A stretch of DNA of 64,000 nucleotides, from NCBI GenBank assembly GCA_963849325.1, contig CAWKHF010000006.1, positions 384,001-448,000 of the forward strand, in the 5' to 3' direction. Positions 11,190 to 64,000 of this stretch are shown here, piece after piece. Below the pieces are notes generated by a model. It searched no databases and was not told the DNA's origin. It saw only the letters and a program-made list of their open reading frames with translations. The stretch comes from an uncultured Planctomycetota bacterium. Lineage in GTDB: Bacteria > Planctomycetota > Planctomycetia > Gemmatales > Gemmataceae. The position numbers and the translations under genes are program-made. The stretch's first letter is position 1, and every line of letters starts with the position of its first letter.

Positions 11190-11512
11190 CGTTGATGCCT
11201 TCTCTTTCTTTGGGTCTTGCAGTCGCAACTGCTTCTCTGTTCCTCTTCGCCAAATCCCTGCCTCTACTCTAACTCATAAAACGAGCACATTCCATGCCAT
11301 CATCAGTCCAGGAGGCGAGAGCATACGACATGTTTTTCTTAAAACCTTATTAACAAAATGCTTGCGCCGAAACCCGCTAAGGATGCCTATGGTCTGTATC
11401 GGCATGCCGGCTCGATGAAATGCAAGAAATGTTTTGAAATGGAACAGGGCCATGTTGATTTTTGTACATGAGAAGAAGCGGGGGATAAGGACGATCAAGA
11501 TAGGCCGTTAAG

Positions 11513-13012
11513 TCAAAAACCGTCCGGCCGGCACGCAAAGGCACGGTCGAGAACGAGCACATCCTGATCTGGCCAATGCTTGGCACGGACGACCTCCGGC
11601 CAGAAGCGGCGGTAGAGGACACGCAGACGCACACCGACCAGCGACGACGGGAACTCGTAGACGCTCTCATCGACCTGTCCCGGACTGAGGCGAGTGTCCG
11701 GCGGAGGATCGGGGGCGGCGAGCCAGAACGGCACCGGATGGTGGCCCTCGAAGTCCTGGAGAACGCGGGCATACAGTCGTCCCGGTTGGTCGGCCAGATC
11801 GGGACCGACCGGCGCCGGCAACCTCGGTCCCGAGCGCGGCGGCAGCGAACGACCATCCTCGCTTCGCCCCTCGACGATGAGAACCAGGTGCCGATCGACG
11901 AAGCCGGTCGGCAGGCGATGACCGACACCCTCGGTCCAGAGGCGCACCCGGGCCCGCACACCGTCCGCCTTGCGCTCGAAGAGCGCCGACGCCTTGATGG
12001 CGCGGCGCAGCATCGCCTCTCGGCTGCCATCGAAGAAGCGATGATTGGCGAGCGTGTGCGGGTCGCGCGCGATGCCGCCGTGGCCGGGGGCCATGTTGGT
12101 CATGCGGCCGGTCGGCTTCATGTGGCAATCCTGGCAGTGCTTGCCCTGGCGGCGGGCGGGACTGGCCTGCCATTCGGAGAACGTGCTGTAAACGTGGACG
12201 CCGAAGATGATACCTTCATGGCACGAGGCGCAGTAACGGCTGTCGCGGTACAGCGGCGAATAGGCGTCCTCGCCACGGTCCACGTCGTCGAGGGCACCGA
12301 AGAACAGCTGGCCCTCGGTCGGGCGCAGCAGCCGCAGGTTGAATCGGCCGTGCGTCAGTCCGATGGTTCCGTCGGCGACGTCGGCGATCTTGTGACAGTA
12401 ATCGCAGTGGACGCCACGAGCAGCGACGCCTCGGACTTTCCGGAGGTCGTAGTCTGTCGCCGTGGGAGCATGACAGGAGGCGCAGACGCCGGCGCCGTCG
12501 GGATACTGCGTGAGCAGGCCCCAGCTGACGCCCGGATGGCCGTGCCTGTCGGTGCCTTCGTAGAGGTTGCGGAAGTGTTGCCCCGTGACCGAGTGGGCGT
12601 GGCCGCTGTGCGACCATTCGCGGTAAATTTCGGCATGGCAGTTGGCGCAGTTGTGGACCTCGGCCGTGTTCGGCGCGGGATCGACCCATTCATAATCCGC
12701 GTTATCTTCGGACGGCAAACGAGTCAGGCGGATCGACAGCGGCGATTTCGTGCGTTCGACGCCGCCGATGAAGTACCCTTCTTTCCACGCCGTCAAGCGT
12801 CGCCCTGGTGATGGACGCGGCAAATGGAAGCGGCCGCCGACATCGGTGTGAGTGCTGGCCGCGGAACCCTTGAAGCGCACGCGCACGGTGGCGAGCGGGC
12901 CGTCCTCATCGAGGACCCGCCCCTCGACGCCGGTCGGTCCCGCAGGCAGCAGGGTCAACCCGGCGAGCAGAGCGAGCAGCAGCCCCAGCGTCAATCCCGG
13001 TGACAAGCGCAC
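11513..13012 (-). CDS. Secreted multiheme c-type cytochrome (c554/c-prime-like) with carboxypeptidase-regulatory-like N-terminal domain
   Basis: Five CxxCH motifs (CANCH, CASCH, CDYCH, CASCH, CQDCH); signal peptide after GTG at 13012; GHRLPTG motif. Confidence 0.88.
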   Translation of the reverse strand: MRLSPGLTLGLLLALLAGLTLLPAGPTGVEGRVLDEDGPLATVRVRFKGSAASTHTDVGGRFHLPRPSPGRRLTAWKEGYFIGGVERTKSPLSIRLTRLPSEDNADYEWVDPAPNTAEVHNCANCHAEIYREWSHSGHAHSVTGQHFRNLYEGTDRHGHPGVSWGLLTQYPDGAGVCASCHAPTATDYDLRKVRGVAARGVHCDYCHKIADVADGTIGLTHGRFNLRLLRPTEGQLFFGALDDVDRGEDAYSPLYRDSRYCASCHEGIIFGVHVYSTFSEWQASPARRQGKHCQDCHMKPTGRMTNMAPGHGGIARDPHTLANHRFFDGSREAMLRRAIKASALFERKADGVRARVRLWTEGVGHRLPTGFVDRHLVLIVEGRSEDGRSLPPRSGPRLPAPVGPDLADQPGRLYARVLQDFEGHHPVPFWLAAPDPPPDTRLSPGQVDESVYEFPSSLVGVRLRVLYRRFWPEVVRAKHWPDQDVLVLDRAFACRPDGF

Positions 13013-56434: not shown

Positions 56435-56659
56435 ATGACACCCGTATCGTCCGTGGTCCATAGTGACCCCGACATCCTGGGCGGCGTGCCGGTGTTCGTT
56501 GGCACCCGCGTGCCCGTCCGGGCGCTGATCGACTACCTCGGCGGCGGCCAGCCGCTCTCCGAGTTTCTAGAGGACTTCCCGTCTGTCAGCCGCGAACAGG
56601 CGGTGGCTGCCCTGCGGCTGGCTGCTGAGGCACTGATGGCCCATGCGAATTCTGCTTGA
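56435..56659 (+). CDS. DUF433 antitoxin
   Basis: DPDILGGVPVFVGTRVPV..L.DYL..G.....FLEDFPSV. Confidence 0.92.
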   Translation: MTPVSSVVHSDPDILGGVPVFVGTRVPVRALIDYLGGGQPLSEFLEDFPSVSREQAVAALRLAAEALMAHANSA

Positions 56660-56965
56660 CGAGTGTGTGCCCCAGCGGCTGGGCCGGGAGCTGACCGGCC
56701 ACGCCGTCCAGACGGTCCCGCAGCAGGGCTGGTCGGGCAAGAAGAACGGAGAGTTGCTCGGCCTCATGGCGGCGGCCGGGTTCGAGGTGCTGCTGACGGT
56801 GGACCAGGGCATCCCGCACCAGCAGAACCTGCCGCGGCCGGGGTGGCGGTGGTGGTGATGGCCGGCCCGAGCAACCAACTCGTGGATCTGGTGCCGCTAG
56901 TGCCTGGCGTAGTGGCCGCGCTGGGAACGATTCAGCCAGGCGATGTGGTCGAGATCCGCACCTAA
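56643..56965 (+). CDS. DUF5615 PIN-like toxin (frameshifted)
   Basis: MRILLDECVP, GWSGKKNGELL, LLTVD..IPHQQNL; overlaps the DUF433 gene. Confidence 0.9.
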
Positions 56966-56992
56966 CAAGTTGTTGCAGTAGACCCGCCATGC

Positions 56993-57056
56993 AGCTTTGC
57001 CACGCATTAGCGGTTTTTTAGCTCAATGCGTGGCAACTTTCCTCAATGCGTTGCAG
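56993..57056. repeat. Left end of element 1: TIR plus two 14-bp subterminal motifs
   Basis: TCAATGCGTGGCAA at 57023-36 and TCAATGCGTTGCAG at 57043-56 (20-bp period). Confidence 0.88.
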
Positions 57057-57100
57057 GAAACGCGCCAGAACTGTAGTTCCAAAAAGCGAACATTTTTTGC

Positions 57101-57129
57101 TTGACAGGTGTCAACATTCCGGCTATCGT
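57101..57129 (+). promoter_or_regulatory. Sigma70 promoter with palindromic operator; probably a leaderless transcript
   Basis: TTGACA-17 bp-TATCGT; TTGACA-GG-TGTCAA palindrome on the -35; ATG 6 nt after the -10. Confidence 0.75.
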
Positions 57130-57135
57130 TCCTGA

Positions 57136-57418
57136 ATGGGAAGGCCACGGCATCCGAATAAGCACATCGAGAAGGCCGTCCAATACGCGGAGGCTCTCGG
57201 ATGGCGCGTCGAGCTATCAAATGGTCATGCTTGGGGCCATTTGCTCTGCCCACAGAGTACCCGTGAAGGGTGCATTGTCGGGGTCTGGTCTACTCCCAAA
57301 AACGCTGAAAACCACGCTCGCCACATCCGGCGTGAAGTTGATATTTGTCCTCATGGAACACCTAGCAAAGGCAACGTTGAAGAACTACAGTGTGCAAGAA
57401 AAAAGGGGAGGGAAATGA
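57136..57418 (+). CDS. HicA-like putative toxin
   Basis: HPNKHIEKAVQYAEALGWRV...GHAWG.L.CP...VWSTP; probably ends at the ATGA overlap (57415-18), the fusion being an indel. Confidence 0.6.
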
Positions 57419-57981
57419 AAACCGGGAAGCCGTGTGAGCGGGAGCACGACTTTGTCCTGGTCCTGACTGGCATTAACGAGTTGACGCCATCAGTGGAGGA
57501 AGCTCTGTTTGAGGCCGGCTGCGATGACGCTACGCCTAGCGTCCGATTCGGTCGAGTATACCTAACCTTCTCGCGTTGTGCCGCATCTCTGAAAGATGCA
57601 ATCCTGAGCGCAATTCAGGACGTGAGGGCGGCCAAGATCGGGGCAGATGTACTCCGAGTCGATCACTGCAACCTTGTCACGCAGGCCGACATTGCCCGTA
57701 AAATCAACCGAAGTCGGCAGCTTGTTCATCAATACTACACTGGAGTCCGTGGCCCTGGCAACTTCCCGCCCCCGGTTTGTCACATATGCGATGAGTCGCC
57801 ACTTTGGTATTGGTGCGAGGTTGCCTATTGGCTTTGGGAGAACGACATGATTACAGAGGATGTGTGTCGGGAGGCTGAACATGTCGCCTTCATCAATACT
57901 GTACTAGAGCTTAAAAACCAACGAGAGATTGATCCGAAGTTAGCAGAAGAGGTACTCCAATCAATCGGTGCAGCTCAGTAA
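57415..57981 (+). CDS. Putative antitoxin (HicB-like N-terminus plus HTH)
   Basis: GGGGAGGG RBS; LFEAGCDDA, LVTQADIARKINRSRQLVHQY, FPPP, PLW.W.EVA.WL. Confidence 0.7.
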   Translation: MKTGKPCEREHDFVLVLTGINELTPSVEEALFEAGCDDATPSVRFGRVYLTFSRCAASLKDAILSAIQDVRAAKIGADVLRVDHCNLVTQADIARKINRSRQLVHQYYTGVRGPGNFPPPVCHICDESPLWYWCEVAYWLWENDMITEDVCREAEHVAFINTVLELKNQREIDPKLAEEVLQSIGAAQ

Positions 57982-57999
57982 GTTTTTGCTTCCAGTATG

Positions 58000-58034
58000 C
58001 GGCAAGTCCCAGTCTAATAAGCCGGGACTTGCCG
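58000..58034. terminator. Hairpin between the convergent antitoxin and transposase genes
   Basis: CGGCAAGTCCC...GGGACTTGCCG, an 11-bp stem. Confidence 0.65.
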
Positions 58035-58035
58035 T

Positions 58036-59321
58036 TTAACTAGGTCGCTGCATTCTTAGGATCATCCCCGCGCCGTCCTGTCGCTCCTCCGGCTCCTCAT
58101 CCTTCCAGAATACCGGCACGATGCCAAGCGTTTCTTGCTCCTGAATCAAGCAGGACAGGTTGTGGCAGAGGATTTTGCACAGCACTTCGTTGACCATCGA
58201 CATTTCGTTCTTGCTCGCCACCCTGTCGCCGAACTTCCGCTTGATGGCGCGAGAAGGTGATCTCGACGTTGCTGCGCTTGTGATAATGGGTCATGTACTC
58301 TTCCTGGTTGCACTGAAAGTAGTGGTAGGCTTTCTCGAAAGCGCCGCCAATCGCGCCCGTGCTGTTGGACTTGAAGGCAATGAACGCCTGCCCGCCGCAA
58401 GCTGCAACCTCTTCAAAGTTCTCCACGGAAAGGTAAGCCTTGTCGGCGCTCACTTCGCCGATCTCAAAATGCGTCTTCGTCTCGCGGACCAGCGGGACGA
58501 ACTGAGGGCAATCATGGGCATCCTTGTCCAGAATGCGGACGGCAGTAACGACATTCGTTTTCACGCCGGAGGCGATATGCGTCTTGACCCAGATGCCGCG
58601 CGTCCGCGTGACGCCGTACTTGTGGTCGTACCAGCGCTCGTAGACGGCAAGTGCTGAACCCGCTGCTGTCGATGGCGAAGTCTTTTTCGACCGGATCGCA
58701 ACGGACGGGCCTTTCGCCGACGAGCTGCTTGAGAACCGGCGTGTAGTACGGGTCTTCCATGAACGTTGTCGCCTTCATGCCGGGAATCAGCTTGCGGGTG
58801 AATCCTTTCTCGTAGGCTTCCTGCAAGGTCTGTGGAGAAGCGGCGGGCGCTGTAAACCGCAGTAAACCTTGTAGGCCATCGTGAAGACGGCATCACTAGA
58901 ACGCGTGCGGCTTCGTGCCCGTCGTGCTTGCCGGCCGCTGCGCGATCTGGCACGACGGCGAGCAGAGGTCGTGCAAGAGGACGCGGAGGCGGCGCTTCTC
59001 CGTGGCTTGCGCCATGTTGTACTTCGGCCAGTCCTGCTTGTAGGTCTTCCGCTCGGTGAGCGTAATCGTCTTCGTCTCAATCACGGTGCCATCCGGCAGC
59101 ACATCCCTCTTGTGGACGATGGACGCGGCGTAGAAGTGCTTGCAGGTGTTGCCGCCGTCAACGTGATCCAGGCAAGTGCAGGTCTTCGCTTCCAGGTTGA
59201 CGCGGTACGTCGCGTTACCGCTCTTGTTGGACTGGCTCGGCACAAGCCAGGTGCCGTCGTTCATGCGGTTCAGCCGACAGGTCGCCGCGATGATGAGTCC
59301 ACGCTGCTCTCTGGCGTCCAT
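58036..59321 (-). CDS. Transposase: N-terminal SWIM Zn finger plus IS4/IS5-type (DDE_Tnp_1-like) DDE domain (several frameshifts)
   Basis: WLVPSQS..YRVNL...CTCLDH.....CKH; FAIDSSGF; SADKAY; YHKRSNVE; NEVLCKILCHN. Confidence 0.88.
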
Positions 59322-59357
59322 TTTCTCAATCTCCGGGACAACGCTCTTGTCCACATT

Positions 59358-59400
59358 ATTGTATACACCGGAGACAGATTTGTAAACATATTGGTAGACA
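59358..59400 (-). promoter_or_regulatory. Transposase promoter with repeated TGTnnAC(A) boxes
   Basis: TTTACA-17 bp-TACAAT; boxes TGTCTACC, TGTTTACA and TGTATACA, with TGTGGACA just downstream. Confidence 0.7.
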
Positions 59401-59443
59401 GTTTTCCTAGTTTTTCTCGGCTTTTTTCGTAATCGCTTGCCAG

Positions 59444-59677
59444 TTACAGAAGGTCTTTCAGGTTCCGGTTGATGGCCCAAGCAAAGTCGAGAAGAGTGGA
59501 AAGACGGGGATCGTAGTCCGATTCAGGATTGAGCAGGCGAGACACTGCCTGCCGTGCCCCTCCCTTAGCAAGCCCCATGCGGAGGCCGATCTCTTCCTGC
59601 GTCATGCCGCTTTCTTCGGCTGCCTGACGCATTCTCTGTCGGACAGAGGCGACCGCGAGATGGTTCACCTTCCCCAT
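59444..59677 (-). CDS. Xre/cI-like HTH regulator, probably leaderless
   Basis: GMTQEEIGLRMG...RQAVSRLLN....DPRLSTL; upstream TTGCCC-17 bp-TAGACT, then ATG 6 nt later. Confidence 0.88.
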   Translation of the reverse strand: MGKVNHLAVASVRQRMRQAAEESGMTQEEIGLRMGLAKGGARQAVSRLLNPESDYDPRLSTLLDFAWAINRNLKDLL

Positions 59678-59808
59678 GTTGTAAGTCTACACCTTCGTAG
59701 TCATTCGGGCAACATGAACGTTGGCAACAGTAACTGCCACGAAAAGACACCCTGCTGTGGAGAATGGTCCTCGTAACTCCTTTTGCGTCACCGTCTTGCG
59801 ATGTTCTA

Positions 59809-59837
59809 TTGACATAAGCCCTTATCGAGCTTACAAT
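59809..59837 (+). promoter_or_regulatory. Strong sigma70 promoter for the cargo operon
   Basis: TTGACA-17 bp-TACAAT. Confidence 0.8.
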
Positions 59838-59888
59838 TAGGACGAGTGTAGGAGCACTAGATGCCCCCGTCCTCAGCTGAGGTCCGGT

Positions 59889-62445
59889 GTGAAATTCACA
59901 AGCGCAGTGCAGGAGCAATCATTCCGCGCGGTGCTGCGCGCGTTGGAGCGGTTGGGTTACACTCGCGACGTTTTGTTGAAAGAGGAGTATCCCTTCGACG
60001 ACTGGTTCTTGCCCGGCAACCAAGAGCGAGTCGCCCCAGCCGTGGCCTTCGGCCAGACCCCTCTCGCTTACGACAGCGCTTGCTTCGCGGTGGTGGTGTC
60101 CAACGGCCAGCAAGGCCCCGAACTGGTCAACCAGTATCGTGCCTTGGGTGCCCCCCTCGCTATCGAAGTTCGCCCTGACAAGGTAGTACACTGGCGAGTC
60201 AGCCGAGCCATGTCGGCTGGAGATGAGCAGTTCGTCATCCCCCCGGATCGGGTAGAGGATGCCTTCCAGGAGAATGCGCACAAGTGGAACCCGGAAAGTG
60301 TTTTTCGGGCAAAGAACATCGCCGCAACATCTCCCCGCCAAGCCGACTTCGTGGACCTCGGCTTAATCCCTGCACTGGAGCAACACGTTCGCGCCAAACT
60401 CGATCCCTTGCTGCGGGAGGTATTGCACGCGGGGAAGAAGGAGTATGAATACCGCAAGGGAGGACCGCCGGACCCAGACAAACTGTACCGCCTTGTATTC
60501 CGGACCCTCGCGGGGAAGATGATGTCTGAGCGGGGGGTGTTAGGCTTCCACTCGGCCAACGGTGCGCCGAACGCCCCGGATCTCTAGACAAGGTTGCCAA
60601 ATTCTACAGTGATTCCCAGCCGGTCGTTGCCGATGTGTCAACCCAACGGGTTGTCGTGGAAAGGCTGTGGCAGAGCATCAGCCTGAGAAATCTGTCCGTC
60701 GAAGTGCTGGCGTTCGTCTGGGAGAACACCCTTGTAACCAGGGATATTCGCGAGGAACGAGGCATTCACGCCACCCCGCCCAGCATCGCCCGATACCTCG
60801 TTCACCGCCTGCCTATCCAAGACATTCCACAGGCTGAGCGGCGCATTGTCGAACCTTGCTGTGGGAGCGGCACGTTCTTGGTTGCGGCCCTCCAGCGACT
60901 GCGTGAACTGCTACCGCCTTCGATTGACCCGCGGAGTCGGCACAAGTATTTCACCGACATGCTCAGCGGGTTCGACAATGAAACCTTCGGCTTGGAGGTG
61001 GCGCGTCCAGCCTAATGCTTGCCGACTTCCCGAACCCGAACGGGTGGGCGCTCGTCGAGGAAGACGTTTTTGGGACGCCCGAGCAGTCGCCGCAGTTCCA
61101 CGCCGCTTTGCAAGCAGCCCGCGTGGTTCTGTGCAACCCGCCATTCGAGCCGTTCAAGCCACGGGACCGCGCTTTGTACGAGTTACGCTCCGTCCATAAG
61201 CCGGTGGAACTATTGCAGCGAGTCCTCGACCAACTCGGAAATCAGGGGCTTCTTGGCTTCGTACTTCCCCAGCAACTACTCAATGGGGTGAGTTACCGCA
61301 GCATTCGAGAGAGACTGGCCGAGCGGTATGAAGAAATCGAGTTGGTCGGCTTGCCGGATAAGGTCTTCGAGAAGTCTGAACACGAAACAGCTCTCCTGCT
61401 GGCGAAGGTCCCGCGAACCCATCGGGGGCCGCTGTCCATTCTCCACCGCAAGGTCGAGGACAGGGGTTGGCCTCTCTTTAACGCTTACTCCCAGGTCAGC
61501 CGAGAAGACGCCGGAGCCAAGACCCCAGCGCAAGCATCCGACAACATCGGGATACCCGACCTCCAAAGCATCTGGACGCGCACTGGCCGGATCACCCACG
61601 GTCGGCGATGTTACGGGCGGGAACGTCCACCGCGGCATCGAATGGAATCTTCCACTGGACGAGAACAAGTGAGCTGTTGATCTCCAAGGCTGCACAGCCC
61701 GAATATGGCGCGGCGTGCCGCGTGCGCGAAGAGGCTTTTACTCCTACCAGTGCCCATCTCTCTCATACCTCTGCATGAAGGAGGAGTACCGAAGAAGGAA
61801 CGCTTTCAACTTGCCTTGGAATCTACCCAAGGTAATCATGAACGCGAAGCGGAAGTGCGCGGTCCCTGGCGGATTGCGGCATACGCCGACGAGGCCGGAC
61901 TGGTTTGCTACCAGACGTACACCGCCCTGTGGCCGTCTGGGGATTGGACTGCGACGGCTCTGGCCGCAGTCCTCAACGGGCCGGTTGCGAATGCGTTCGT
62001 TGCGTCCCACGAAGGCAATCGTGACATCACCGTCGAGACAGTCAAGGCAATTCCGGTTCCGCCGCTGACGAATGCCCTGAAAGGGGGGCTTACGAAGTTG
62101 GTAGCCGAGTATCGGACAGCCGCCGAGCGAATGGAGCTTGAAGTCAGGTCGGGCGAGCGCTCAGCGCGCGACATCCTTCGCGAGATTGACGCGGCCATCC
62201 TGAGAGCCTACGACCTCTCGCCTAGGCTCGAACATGAACTGCTCAACTATTTCAGCGGGTATGGCACGAAGAGGCCAGTGCCCTTCAACTTCGGCGACTA
62301 CTACCCGGCCGACTTTAGCTCGCATATCCCCTTATGGATGTTTCTCTCGCCAGAGTTCCAGAGAGGCAACCCGCAGGACATCTTGTCGAAAGCTCCTAAG
62401 ATCACCGATCCGGCATTGATCGACGCATTCCGTGAAGTGGAGTAA
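59889..62445 (+). CDS. Type IIG-like N6-adenine DNA methyltransferase with TRD (frameshifted)
   Basis: RGIHATP, VEPCCGSGTFL (motif I), LCNPPF (motif IV), GFVLP, TRD-like AVLNGPVA and EIDAAILRAYDL. Confidence 0.85.
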
Positions 62446-62451
62446 CCTGCT

Positions 62452-63010
62452 TTGCCAAACGGAAAACTGCTCGACAATAACGTGATTTCGGTTCTTGCGA
62501 GTGCCAAGGACCCAAGGAGGCCGATAGCGGAGGCACACCTAGCCGCGTCTGGTTTCGGGCCGATTGTCTTTCCGTGCATCGCTATCGGCGAAATCGAATT
62601 TGGGATGATGAAGGCGACAAACCCAGACGCGGCACAACAGGCGAGCATGAGGGCATTCCTTAAGCGCTATCCGATTCTCCCTTTCGACCATCACACCGTC
62701 GAACCGTATGCGATGATTCGCGCAAAAACTCTGGCTCATGTTCGGCACTGCGAAGGTGCGCGGTCACGCCGAAAAACTCCCAGAAGAGTTGAAAGACCGC
62801 GCAACAGGACTCTGCCTAGGTATCGATGAACGAGACTTACTCATCGCCAGCATCGCGGTAGCGTTTAACCTATTCCTGGCGACGATGGATCGCAATGACG
62901 GGATGCGGCGGATTGAGGCAGCTGCGGCGGTCCTTGAAGCAGAAGGCAAGCCTGTTTGCCTCCGGATTGAGGATTGGTCGAAACCGTTGCCCGGCGCGTC
63001 TGACTATTGA
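62452..63010 (+). CDS. PIN-domain (VapC-like) nuclease (frameshifted)
   Basis: LLDNNVIS, IGEIEFG, IDERDLLIASIA, LATMD; starts 6 bp after the methylase stop. Confidence 0.82.
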
Positions 63011-63011
63011 G

Positions 63012-63140
63012 TCAAAACGTTGCAGACCGCCTCAAAACGTTGCAGCTCGCCAATGCGTTGCAAAGCTCCGCCATGCAGCTTTGCCACGCATTGACACTTT
63101 TTCACGTCAATGCGTGGCAACTTGCCTCAATCCGTTGCAG
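63012..63140. repeat. Junction: right end of element 1, 9-bp target duplication, left end of element 2
   Basis: TCAAAACGTTGCAG twice (63012, 63032); CAATGCGTTGCAAAGCT | CCGCCATGC | AGCTTTGCCACGCATTG; TCAATGCGTGGCAA at 63107; TCAATCCGTTGCAG at 63127. Confidence 0.92.
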
Positions 63141-64000
63141 GCGGCGAAAACCGTAGGACCATCCGCGCGCTGTCCTGTCGCTCCTCTAGCTCCTCATCTT
63201 TCCAGAAACCGGGCACGATGCCAAGCGTTTCCTGCTCCATGAATCAGGCAGGACAGGTTGTGGCAGAGGATCTTGCAAAGCACTTCGTTGACCATCGACA
63301 CGTTCGTTCTTGCTCGCCACGTCTGCCCCGAACTTCCGCTTGATCGCGGAGAAAGTGCGTTTCGACGTTCCACCGCTTGTGGTAGTGCGCCATGTACTCT
63401 TCCTGGTTGAACTGGAAGAAGTGAAACGCCTTCTCGAAAGTGCCGCCAACCGCGCCCGTGCGCGTTGGACTTGAAGGCGATGAACGCCTGCCCGCCGCAC
63501 TCGGCGACCGCCTCAAAGTTCTCCACGGATGGCGTAAGCCTTGTCCGCGCATCACTTCGCCGATCTCGAAGTGCTTCCGCGTCTCGCTTGACCAGCGGGA
63601 CGAACTGCGGGCAATCGTGGGCGTCCTTGTCGAGAATGCGGACGGCCGTAACGACGTTCGTTTTGACGCCGGAGGCGATGTGCGTCTTGACCCAGACGCT
63701 GCGCGTCCGCGTGACGCCGTACTTGTGGTCGTACCAGCTTCTCGTAGCCGCGAGCTGCCGAAGCCGCTGCTGTCGATGGCGAAGGCCGTTTCGAGGGAGC
63801 GGAGCGGGCGGGCGCTGTCGCCGATCGAGTTGCTCTGAGGATCGGCGTGTAGTACGGGTCTTCCGCGAACGACGTCGCCTTCATGCCGGGAATCGGCTTG
63901 CTGACGAAACCCATCTCGTAGGCTTCGTGCAGGTCCGTGGTGAAGCGGCGGGCGCTGCAGGCCGCAGTAGACCTTGTAGGCCATCGTGAAAAGGGCATCG
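63077..64000. mobile_element. Second, diverged element of the same family (element 2), extending beyond the window
   Basis: Same left-end architecture as element 1 and a paralogous transposase. Confidence 0.9.
63127..64000 (-). CDS. Transposase paralog, C-terminal DDE part (frameshifted; 5' end outside the window)
   Basis: MAYKVYCG, FAIDSSGFG, YHKRWNVE, NEVLCKILCHN, FWKDEE...SPPATD; stop TGA at 63127-29. Confidence 0.88.

Follow-up and report, generated by a model that had tools for sequence, protein, structure and literature searches.

Cargo transposons with a SWIM-DDE transposase stacked at a common 9-bp duplication in a Planctomycetota genome, and related arrays in other bacteria

Two stacked transposons in a Gemmataceae genome

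The window analysed here is a stretch of 64,000 nucleotides (nt) from an uncultured Planctomycetota bacterium of the family Gemmataceae (GenBank assembly GCA_963849325.1, contig CAWKHF010000006.1; G000:C6:384001-448000 in our survey, where G numbers denote genome assemblies, G000 being the window's genome, L numbers family loci and C numbers contigs). At its right-hand end lie two transposons, elements 1 and 2, each with a SWIM-DDE transposase gene and cargo genes. Element 1 (6075 bp) and element 2 (3715 bp) lie in a row, with one duplication before, one between and one after them. Element 1 spans 56993-63067, while element 2 begins at 63077 and runs past the window end to about 66791; the 9-mer CCGCCATGC brackets both, in three copies overall. 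A preliminary description, made from the letters of the window, had placed this 9-mer on both sides of element 1 with the tip of element 2 directly after the second copy, and both copies lie where it put them (56984-56992 and 63068-63076). It had also predicted a further copy beyond the far end of element 2. A whole-genome search located that end at C6:450776-450791 (window-equivalent 66776-66791), and a third CCGCCATGC directly adjoins its tip. The far tip is diverged (3 mismatches), and its two CTGCAACG subterminal repeats are the same as those of the right end of element 1. The parts of the array are the following.

56984-56992, no strand: copy 1 of the target-site duplication (CCGCCATGC), 19 bp past the stop of the upstream small gene
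56993-57057, forward: left end of element 1, a 16-nt tip and two inverted internal copies of a ~13-nt motif (57024-57036, 57043-57055)
63011-63067, forward: right end of element 1, three direct copies of A(A/T)(A/G)CGTTGCA, the last being the tip
63068-63076, no strand: copy 2 of the target-site duplication, common to both elements
63077-63141, forward: left end of element 2, a tip and two internal repeats, the tip and first repeat forming a perfect 15-nt hairpin
63133-64000, reverse: 3' two-thirds of the element 2 transposase gene, the remainder lying past the window
Window-equivalent 64001-66800: remainder of that gene, element 2 cargo, right end and third CCGCCATGC

The 16-nt tip AGCTTTGC(C/A)ACGCATT occurs at 56993 (forward), 63052-63067 (reverse) and 63077 (forward). 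These three matches compare with 0.05 expected in the window, and none of 100 shuffles reached three. The 9-mer on its own is common (4 occurrences in the window versus 1.84 expected; 10 of 100 shuffles reached 4), so that the informative part is its placement relative to the tips. Each end consists of the tip and two further copies of a 12-14-nt motif. A repeat search recovered the inverted repeat of element 1 (20 nt, 90% identical), the abutted ends separated by 9 nt, and the likeness of the left ends of elements 1 and 2 over 74 nt (88%).

Elements 1 and 2 are distinct members of one family. By blastn, they have only 65 nt of the left end (86%) and 1284 nt of the transposase gene (85%) in common, and they carry different cargo. 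The preliminary description was thus right that the pair is no simple duplication. A third member, element 3 (3441 bp), lies on contig 10 between flanks GCTCCATCG and GCCCCATCG; its identity to elements 1 and 2 (84% and 81%) makes it about as distant from each as these are from one another.

An array of this form could arise without any targeting, if unequal exchange between the 9-bp duplications had doubled one element in tandem and the copies had then diverged and replaced their cargo. Such a history is highly improbable here. The transposase genes, left ends and cargo have drifted apart as described, yet 27 of 27 duplication bases are unchanged. Nine base pairs are very short for homologous exchange, element 3 sits on another contig and is about as close to each arrayed element as they are mutually, and other arrays (below) are built alike from members whose transposase genes are 66-92% identical.

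Still harder to credit is an assembly artefact, a false join at 63012-63140. The assembly (14 contigs) is certainly error-prone: the rpoB gene is split across three frames (G000:C1:334967-338611), the Met-zincin gene downstream of the array is also split (also L010:10667-13319), and frequent indel errors of this kind explain the genome completeness of 84.7%. The errors seen are indels, not joins, however; the two sides of the junction have no more than about 25 identical bases in common, not enough to confuse a long-read assembler, and the same architecture is found in independent assemblies. The transposase genes of elements 1-3 are all frameshifted, as are the methyltransferase and PIN genes of element 1, most simply through assembly indels. 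Because rpoB is frameshifted too, the broken transposase frames are uninformative about decay or activity.

The genes of element 1 are the following.

57136-57981, forward: cargo open reading frame (ORF) of 281 amino acids (aa), with a match to PDC-M06
58039-59321, reverse: SWIM-DDE transposase gene, in three frames
59889-62445, forward: cargo gene for a predicted N6-adenine methyltransferase of ~850 aa with a single-chain, type IIG-like architecture, in four frames
62452-63010, forward: cargo gene for a putative PIN-domain (VapC-like) protein, in two frames

In the 281-aa ORF, residues 1-75 match gene A and residues 115-263 match gene B of PDC-M06, a candidate defence system in PADLOC (1.2e-28 and 1.4e-24), and Pfam and NCBIfam searches with it gave no match. 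The methyltransferase matches type II/IIG methyltransferase models, and a search with its first 232 aa recovered 229 proteins that are similar at their N-termini (E ≤ 0.001). Among the 120 of these that were listed, nearly every protein has a length of 809-894 aa (three have 502-655 aa), and N6_Mtase is present in most, whether or not MmeI_Mtase accompanies it. The PIN match is weak (Pfam 20.9 bits against a cut-off of 23.6; VapC model 32.6 bits against a cut-off of 140). Element 2 carries a 283-aa ORF of no known family and a Bro-N protein matching PDC-S13. The cargo of element 3 is a protein with Schlafen/AlbA_2 and HATPase_c_4 domains that matches a model associated with prokaryotic Argonautes (pAgo).

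The surroundings of the array are housekeeping genes, with a thiamine pyrophosphate (TPP) enzyme, ThuA and the Met-zincin downstream and a single DUF433 small-gene pair upstream. A pre-existing defence island as the site of insertion is ruled out by these neighbours. The preliminary description had spoken of accumulation into a defence island; the defence-like matches of the cargo agree with this, but given the housekeeping neighbours the 'island' is just the two transposons. The DUF433 small gene and its 100-aa partner lie directly upstream of the array (window 56435-56965). A genome of the same genus, G407, has a different toxin-antitoxin-like pair in this slot, and a homologue of the partner gene is found elsewhere in another relative, G412; the position is a variable small-gene slot.

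A family of IS5-like transposons with cargo

The transposase has ~425 aa and combines an N-terminal SWIM zinc-finger region with an IS5-type DDE/YREK domain. Tblastn with a 427-aa relative covered residues 1-425 on element 1, in frames -3, -1 and -2. DDE_Tnp_1 (Pfam) scores 67 bits in a full-length relative, while the SWIM match falls slightly under the cut-off in some relatives and well above it in many others. Together with the cargo genes, these domain searches confirm the initial view of the elements as cargo transposons with a SWIM plus DDE_Tnp_1 transposase. Across a 24-member alignment D216 and E351 never vary, and D291 is retained in at least 90% of members; Y344, R347, E351 and K358 are likewise invariant and form the Y-2-R-3-E-6-K signature of IS4/IS5-type enzymes. 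Both the DDE and the YREK motifs are present in the transposase pieces of element 1.

With the N-terminal 141 aa of the element 1 protein, 364 longer proteins among 542 candidates were found at E ≤ 0.001. The 120 listed are mostly ~415-430 aa long and 65-86% identical in the N-terminal region, and their source names are just 'transposase' or 'hypothetical'. The best NCBIfam model, transpos_IS5_2, gives 97-108 bits over the C-terminal half only, below its cut-off of 140. Among 72,556 plasmids, IS5-family transposases match the catalytic half alone, at 24-29% identity, and no record covers 80% of the transposase. One such plasmid match is ISRhba5, whose transposase has 310 aa and whose ends are G-rich, of the GGGCGTTG type. 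The family appears to be missing from curated transposase models, the PGAP-type names being only 'transposase'. An AlphaFold2 model of a full-length relative was mediocre (mean pLDDT 67; below 50 in the catalytic stretch 288-351), and Foldseek against the PDB with this model returned no hit at E ≤ 0.001, the weak top rows being the ISCth4 and Tn5 transposases. On these comparisons the family is a distinct branch of the IS5 superfamily to which a highly conserved SWIM region has been added.

The start of the IS903 terminal repeat is presumably similar to that of the family. Like the IS903 group of the IS5 family, these elements have DDE_Tnp_1 and YREK, transpos_IS5_2 as their best NCBIfam model and a 9-bp duplication, and their terminal repeats start with a G-rich GGC..TTG motif as in the IS5-family ends of ISRhba5. 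For IS903, a 9-bp target duplication is given in Table 1 of PMC2577343. Unlike that group, they have an additional conserved N-terminal region of ~200 aa with the SWIM zinc finger, and their score (105 versus 140) and identity stay low, as noted above, even over the catalytic half. IS5 insertion sequences (IS) are also compact, with ~1 kb, a ~300-aa transposase and no passengers, whereas the present family has ~425 aa, 2.5-9.8 kb and extra genes. Several subterminal repeats, 1-7 kb of cargo, duplications of 9 or 10 bp and stacking at resident ends set it further apart.

We surveyed the family in genomes, taking one genome per species (48 loci), and in metagenomes (181 relatives, 80 kept), giving 128 loci and 1.22 Mb altogether. 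The genome loci span Planctomycetota, Acidobacteriota, Actinomycetota, Chloroflexota, Fibrobacterota, Eremiobacterota/Vulcanimicrobiota and Proteobacteria. At 30 of the 48, the transposase gene was found to lie between inverted ends of the GGCTTTG type, and these end pairs are bounded by a perfect 9- or 10-bp duplication (25), by one with a single mismatch (3) or by none (2); the other 18 loci lack an end pair, and many of them lie at contig ends. The 80 metagenome loci yielded 16 perfect and 2 near-perfect duplications and 4 end pairs without any, and further copies from two multi-copy genomes gave about a dozen more. The ends of the family are of the GGCTTTGC type, starting (G/A)GCTTTGC, with several subterminal repeats. 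The duplication is 9 bp in elements 1-3 and most relatives and 10 bp at 9 of 30 sites. All delimited elements measure 2.5-9.8 kb and carry extra genes. The transposase gene and ends alone would take up ~1.5 kb and every delimited element is well above this, which makes cargo the rule.

The cargo was scanned for Pfam domains in 150 ORFs from 32 stretches covering delimited elements or arrays. Toxin-antitoxin-type domains comprise PIN, HicB-like and SocA_Panacea. Those of restriction-modification type comprise BamHI, D12 and Eco57I/N6 methylases (one protein of 1289 aa), HSDR_N_2 and PD-(D/E)XK. Other defence or regulatory domains are AAA_21 with RloB, AAA_14-DUF4143, an SDH-type protease and HTH-Peptidase_M78, alongside Bro-N, P22_AR_N, DUF4145 and protein kinase domains. 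Judged by these matches, the predicted cargo mostly belongs to defence, toxin-antitoxin and restriction-modification families, most of the names being candidate-level.

The window's genome holds 8 copies of the family (2 arrayed), G403 about 12 (5 arrayed) and G404 about 16. Another family transposase gene of the window's genome (G000:C2:190700-194971) is broken by ~3 kb between residues 334 and 318-405, so that something has inserted in it. Miniature elements of ~98 bp, each composed of two ends of the family type (tips AGCTTTGCAACGTAAT / GGCTTTGCAACGTAAT), occur in the same genome at the following positions.

C4:46224-46321: ~98-bp miniature element
C6:555210-555307: ~98-bp miniature element, with a clean 9-bp duplication (CTCTTTTGT)
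C12:1479294-1479391: ~98-bp miniature element
C7:194471-194567: ~98-bp miniature element

A similar 98-bp element lies in a metagenome at L131:94-191. At L209:6561-6598 and L113:9428-9485 the terminal 16 nt and 29 nt of the tip, respectively, are duplicated in tandem, which may be a transposition footprint or a long-read artefact. Some metagenome contigs start or stop exactly at tips (L128:1, L162:2-3543, L190:3665), and one consists of a single element and nothing else, as would be expected if assemblies break at multi-copy ends or where flanks vary.

Stacked and nested insertions at unrelated sites

Stacking, with members either separated by a common duplication or nested in one another's ends, was found in at least six other assemblies from several phyla. 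The cases are the following.

Array, G403:C14: GGCCTGGCG in three copies; the two elements have nothing in common beyond their ends and a 92%-identical transposase gene
Array, L043 (Terriglobia): AGCGGATTC in three copies
Array, L050: CGCTGCTCG between three elements, with extra partial copies of the 9-mer at one junction
Array, G403:C2: elements B and C share CATAAAAAT in three copies, the 9-mer lying 26 nt inside the right end of element A
Nested insertion, L046: 84 bp inside a left end
Nested insertion, G404:C1: duplication CGTTTATCC, which is positions 10-18 of the outer terminal repeat
Nested insertion, L198: ~45 nt inside another end
L131: miniature element of 98 bp, flanked by a 10-bp duplication and located 2 bp away from a resident end

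The G403:C2 structure is bounded by element A's own duplication, CACGCCCGG. Within the 128 loci, five junctions have inward-facing tips 0-40 bp apart, with spacings of 8, 9, 9, 9 and 12 bp, and one has the outward-facing order. The junction spacer equals the duplication length of 9 bp in the window and in three of these five close junctions. At one L050 junction (L050:7930-7967), several extra partial copies come after CGCTGCTCG in the 38 bp between two stacked elements; this may reflect repeated use and vacating of the site, or be a simple repeat or sequencing artefact.

From the shared 9-mer, the preliminary description had concluded that insertion is sequence-specific. A transposase that recognises a particular 9-bp sequence, CCGCCATGC or a consensus, as those of casposons and Tn7 do, would account for the three identical copies in the window, and element 3 has GC(T/C)CCATCG, its site sharing C-N-C-C-A-T with that of elements 1 and 2. 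The wider sample largely refutes this reading, which we regard as very unlikely. The ~55 target duplications collected across the family are nearly all different, the arrays lie at six different, unrelated 9-mers, and the window's other two CCGCCATGC sites (3281 and 37114) are unoccupied. Three identical 2698-bp copies in one genome have the unrelated duplications CTGTAGGGG, ATGATTGAG and CAAAAGCCT; of six near-identical 3.2-kb copies in another, two carry GGGCCACGC and TCGCCAGGG. Position counts over 21 nine-bp and 9 ten-bp sites revealed no consensus in the duplication or in 15 bp on each side except GC-richness. Sequence-specific targeting of the 9-mer is thus not supported. When the ends and duplications of homologues are compared, tandem arrays do recur, as the preliminary description had anticipated, but no common target consensus emerges. 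Recurrent stacking at differing 9-mers points to the resident end, rather than the 9-mer, as the target.

One could suppose instead that each array marks an intrinsic hot spot, a 9-mer with its outer flank or a bendable or palindromic structure that all members prefer, with no role for the resident element. IS903 offers a precedent, combining its 9-bp duplication with a symmetric flanking target motif (PMC2577343 Table 1). Several site pairs speak for such a preference. L039 and L040 have as common duplication the palindromic 10-mer GGGGTACCCC in related flanks, and L030 and L046 share CGCGCACA-, again in related flanks. L045 and L056 have alike CACAG...CTGTGGAAAA flanks, which we keep as an exception to the lacking consensus, and the C-N-C-C-A-T common to the sites of elements 1/2 and element 3 could be read in the same way. 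We nevertheless consider a hot spot unlikely. Besides the absent consensus and the unrelated duplications of identical copies, a first insertion would replace half of a symmetric flank signal, yet re-use is base-exact in at least five arrays, and a chromosomal site leaves the nested insertions inside ends unexplained.

The site pairs themselves have some further features. L039 and L040 (8774-8783 in both) hold identical 2474-bp copies on one contig, their flanks related in inverted orientation, which suggests insertion into a repeated palindromic element or exchange between copies. At L030:6149-6157 and L046:8236-8244, different elements of one genome have the duplication CGCGCACA(G/C), and their left flanks are alike (TTGCA(C/T)TGCGCC...) and themselves resemble the subterminal motif of the family. 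Two Terriglobia elements (L045:8965-8973, 11775-11815; L056:6383-6391, 11258-11300) lie by CACAG.A. followed by CTGTGGAAAA repeats. These sites resemble a cluster of DnaA-box-like motifs, and the insertions may lie near a replication origin.

Resident ends as candidate landing sites

On balance, we think it probable that the end of a resident element is the targeting signal for incoming relatives. Exact re-use of 9 bp beside a resident tip, at 9-mers that are themselves unrelated, together with insertions inside ends, is best explained if the resident end serves as the signal. The first element would have inserted at an ordinary intergenic site, duplicating CCGCCATGC. A second would then have inserted exactly into the 9 bp flanking the resident end, duplicating CCGCCATGC again. 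In the chemistry that we infer, the tip and subterminal repeats of the resident would be occupied by transposase, which would bring in the incoming transpososome. One strand transfer would fall on the tip-flank phosphodiester, the bond that an end-bound transposase is presumably built to activate, and the other 9 bp outside it (a 9-bp 5' stagger). After repair, the 9-mer would be present once more, now beyond the newcomer's far end. Over repeated rounds, elements with different cargo could accumulate, and a small island with defence-type genes would result.

A number of observations weigh against insertion directed by resident ends. Most elements are solitary with unrelated duplications, and arrays are a minority. 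The preliminary description had the elements joined in the same orientation, head to tail; this holds for 4 of 6 readable junctions, but the other 2 are head-to-head (L050 Ey|Ez and G403:C2 A|B). IS30, which likewise inserts beside inverted repeats (see below), always forms junctions of left with right inverted repeat (IRL-IRR), unlike the family, whose junctions occur in both orientations. Of the four copies of the 3.2-kb element found nested in G404, three occupy an identical position in one type of end and may represent one event later moved as a composite. The L039/L040 and L030/L046 pairs hint at some target preference that is independent of resident ends. The frequent indel errors of the window's assembly count here as well, and the targeting role, like its chemistry, is inferred from the arrangement of the sequences.

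A search for the junction pattern in 401 genomes of the phylum also speaks on this side. Matches occurred in 45 genomes, which is chance level and comparable to a reversed-pattern control, and those listed show no peak at 9-10 bp spacing. No family transposase lay within 1.5 kb of any of the 30 matches fetched, and a case with 10-bp spacing was a plain hairpin. Across five family-bearing genomes, 6 of 24 pattern matches are 9-bp-spaced; only the three in G403 are real junctions, and the other three, with no transposase nearby, are due to chance.

The empty site that the preliminary description had hoped for in related genomes did not turn up either, as no clean one was found among 30 relatives. 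In G407 both flanking genes lie ~960 bp apart without a family element, with the different toxin-antitoxin-like pair between them, and the nearest thing to the 9-mer in the interval carries one mismatch and lies out of register. In G412 the left flank has a homologue in another context, with similarity that stops at the duplication.

Stacking of cargo elements is familiar from other systems. Tn7-like elements at attTn7 form tandem arrays that share one duplication, and tandem casposons, with distinct elements around copies of one duplication, were reportedly described by Krupovic in 2016. As in those arrays, distinct elements are here separated by copies of a single duplication and add up to cargo islands. 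Casposons and Tn7-like elements differ in using a fixed chromosomal target and Cas1 or TnsABC+D enzymes, whereas here the sites vary by array. No Cas1 or TnsABC+D genes were seen in elements 1-3.

Closer in target choice are IS30 and IS911. According to PMC9333248, IS30 integrates into hot spots or beside its own inverted repeats (IR), giving a new IR-IR junction, and IS911 has a similar 'targeted' mode. In both cases, as here, a DDE element inserts beside a resident inverted repeat, and the spacer equals the duplication length (2 bp for IS30, 9 bp here; PMC9333248). IS30 is nonetheless a copy-out-paste-in element of another family, and the present enzyme is IS5-type, not IS30-type. The IR-IR junctions of IS30 are also highly reactive and short-lived, in contrast to those of the family, which persist and join different cargo elements. 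Passenger genes enclosed by IS-type ends are known from transporter IS and from the MIC231 cassettes of IS231 (the latter described in PMC6199540). Those cassettes lack a transposase and are an occasional form, whereas autonomous cargo elements are the norm in this family.

We found neither a name for this SWIM-DDE, IS5-like cargo family nor a description of it or its stacking in the full-text literature, in agreement with the initial impression that it is no named system; an entry in ISfinder, TnCentral or a supplement is possible. New are the range of bacteria in which the family occurs and the evidence for targeting of one another's ends by its members.

The origin of defence-gene clustering in islands is an open question, and most documented routes depend on attachment at fixed places, for example tRNA genes, attTn7 or integrative-element hot spots. 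Tentatively, resident ends could act as landing pads at which cargo transposons with an IS5-type enzyme and a SWIM DNA-binding module dock on each other and build defence islands stepwise at arbitrary chromosomal sites. If so, a family that routinely carries defence, toxin-antitoxin and restriction-modification genes and tends to insert at or inside the ends of its relatives would be able to build islands anywhere and reshuffle what they contain. Its members are widespread among the bacteria of soil and fresh water, and island formation in Planctomycetota, Acidobacteriota, Eremiobacterota and other soil phyla would then be self-templated. If its target choice is indeed end-directed, this IS5-type enzyme would also lend itself to studying how DDE transpososomes select their targets.

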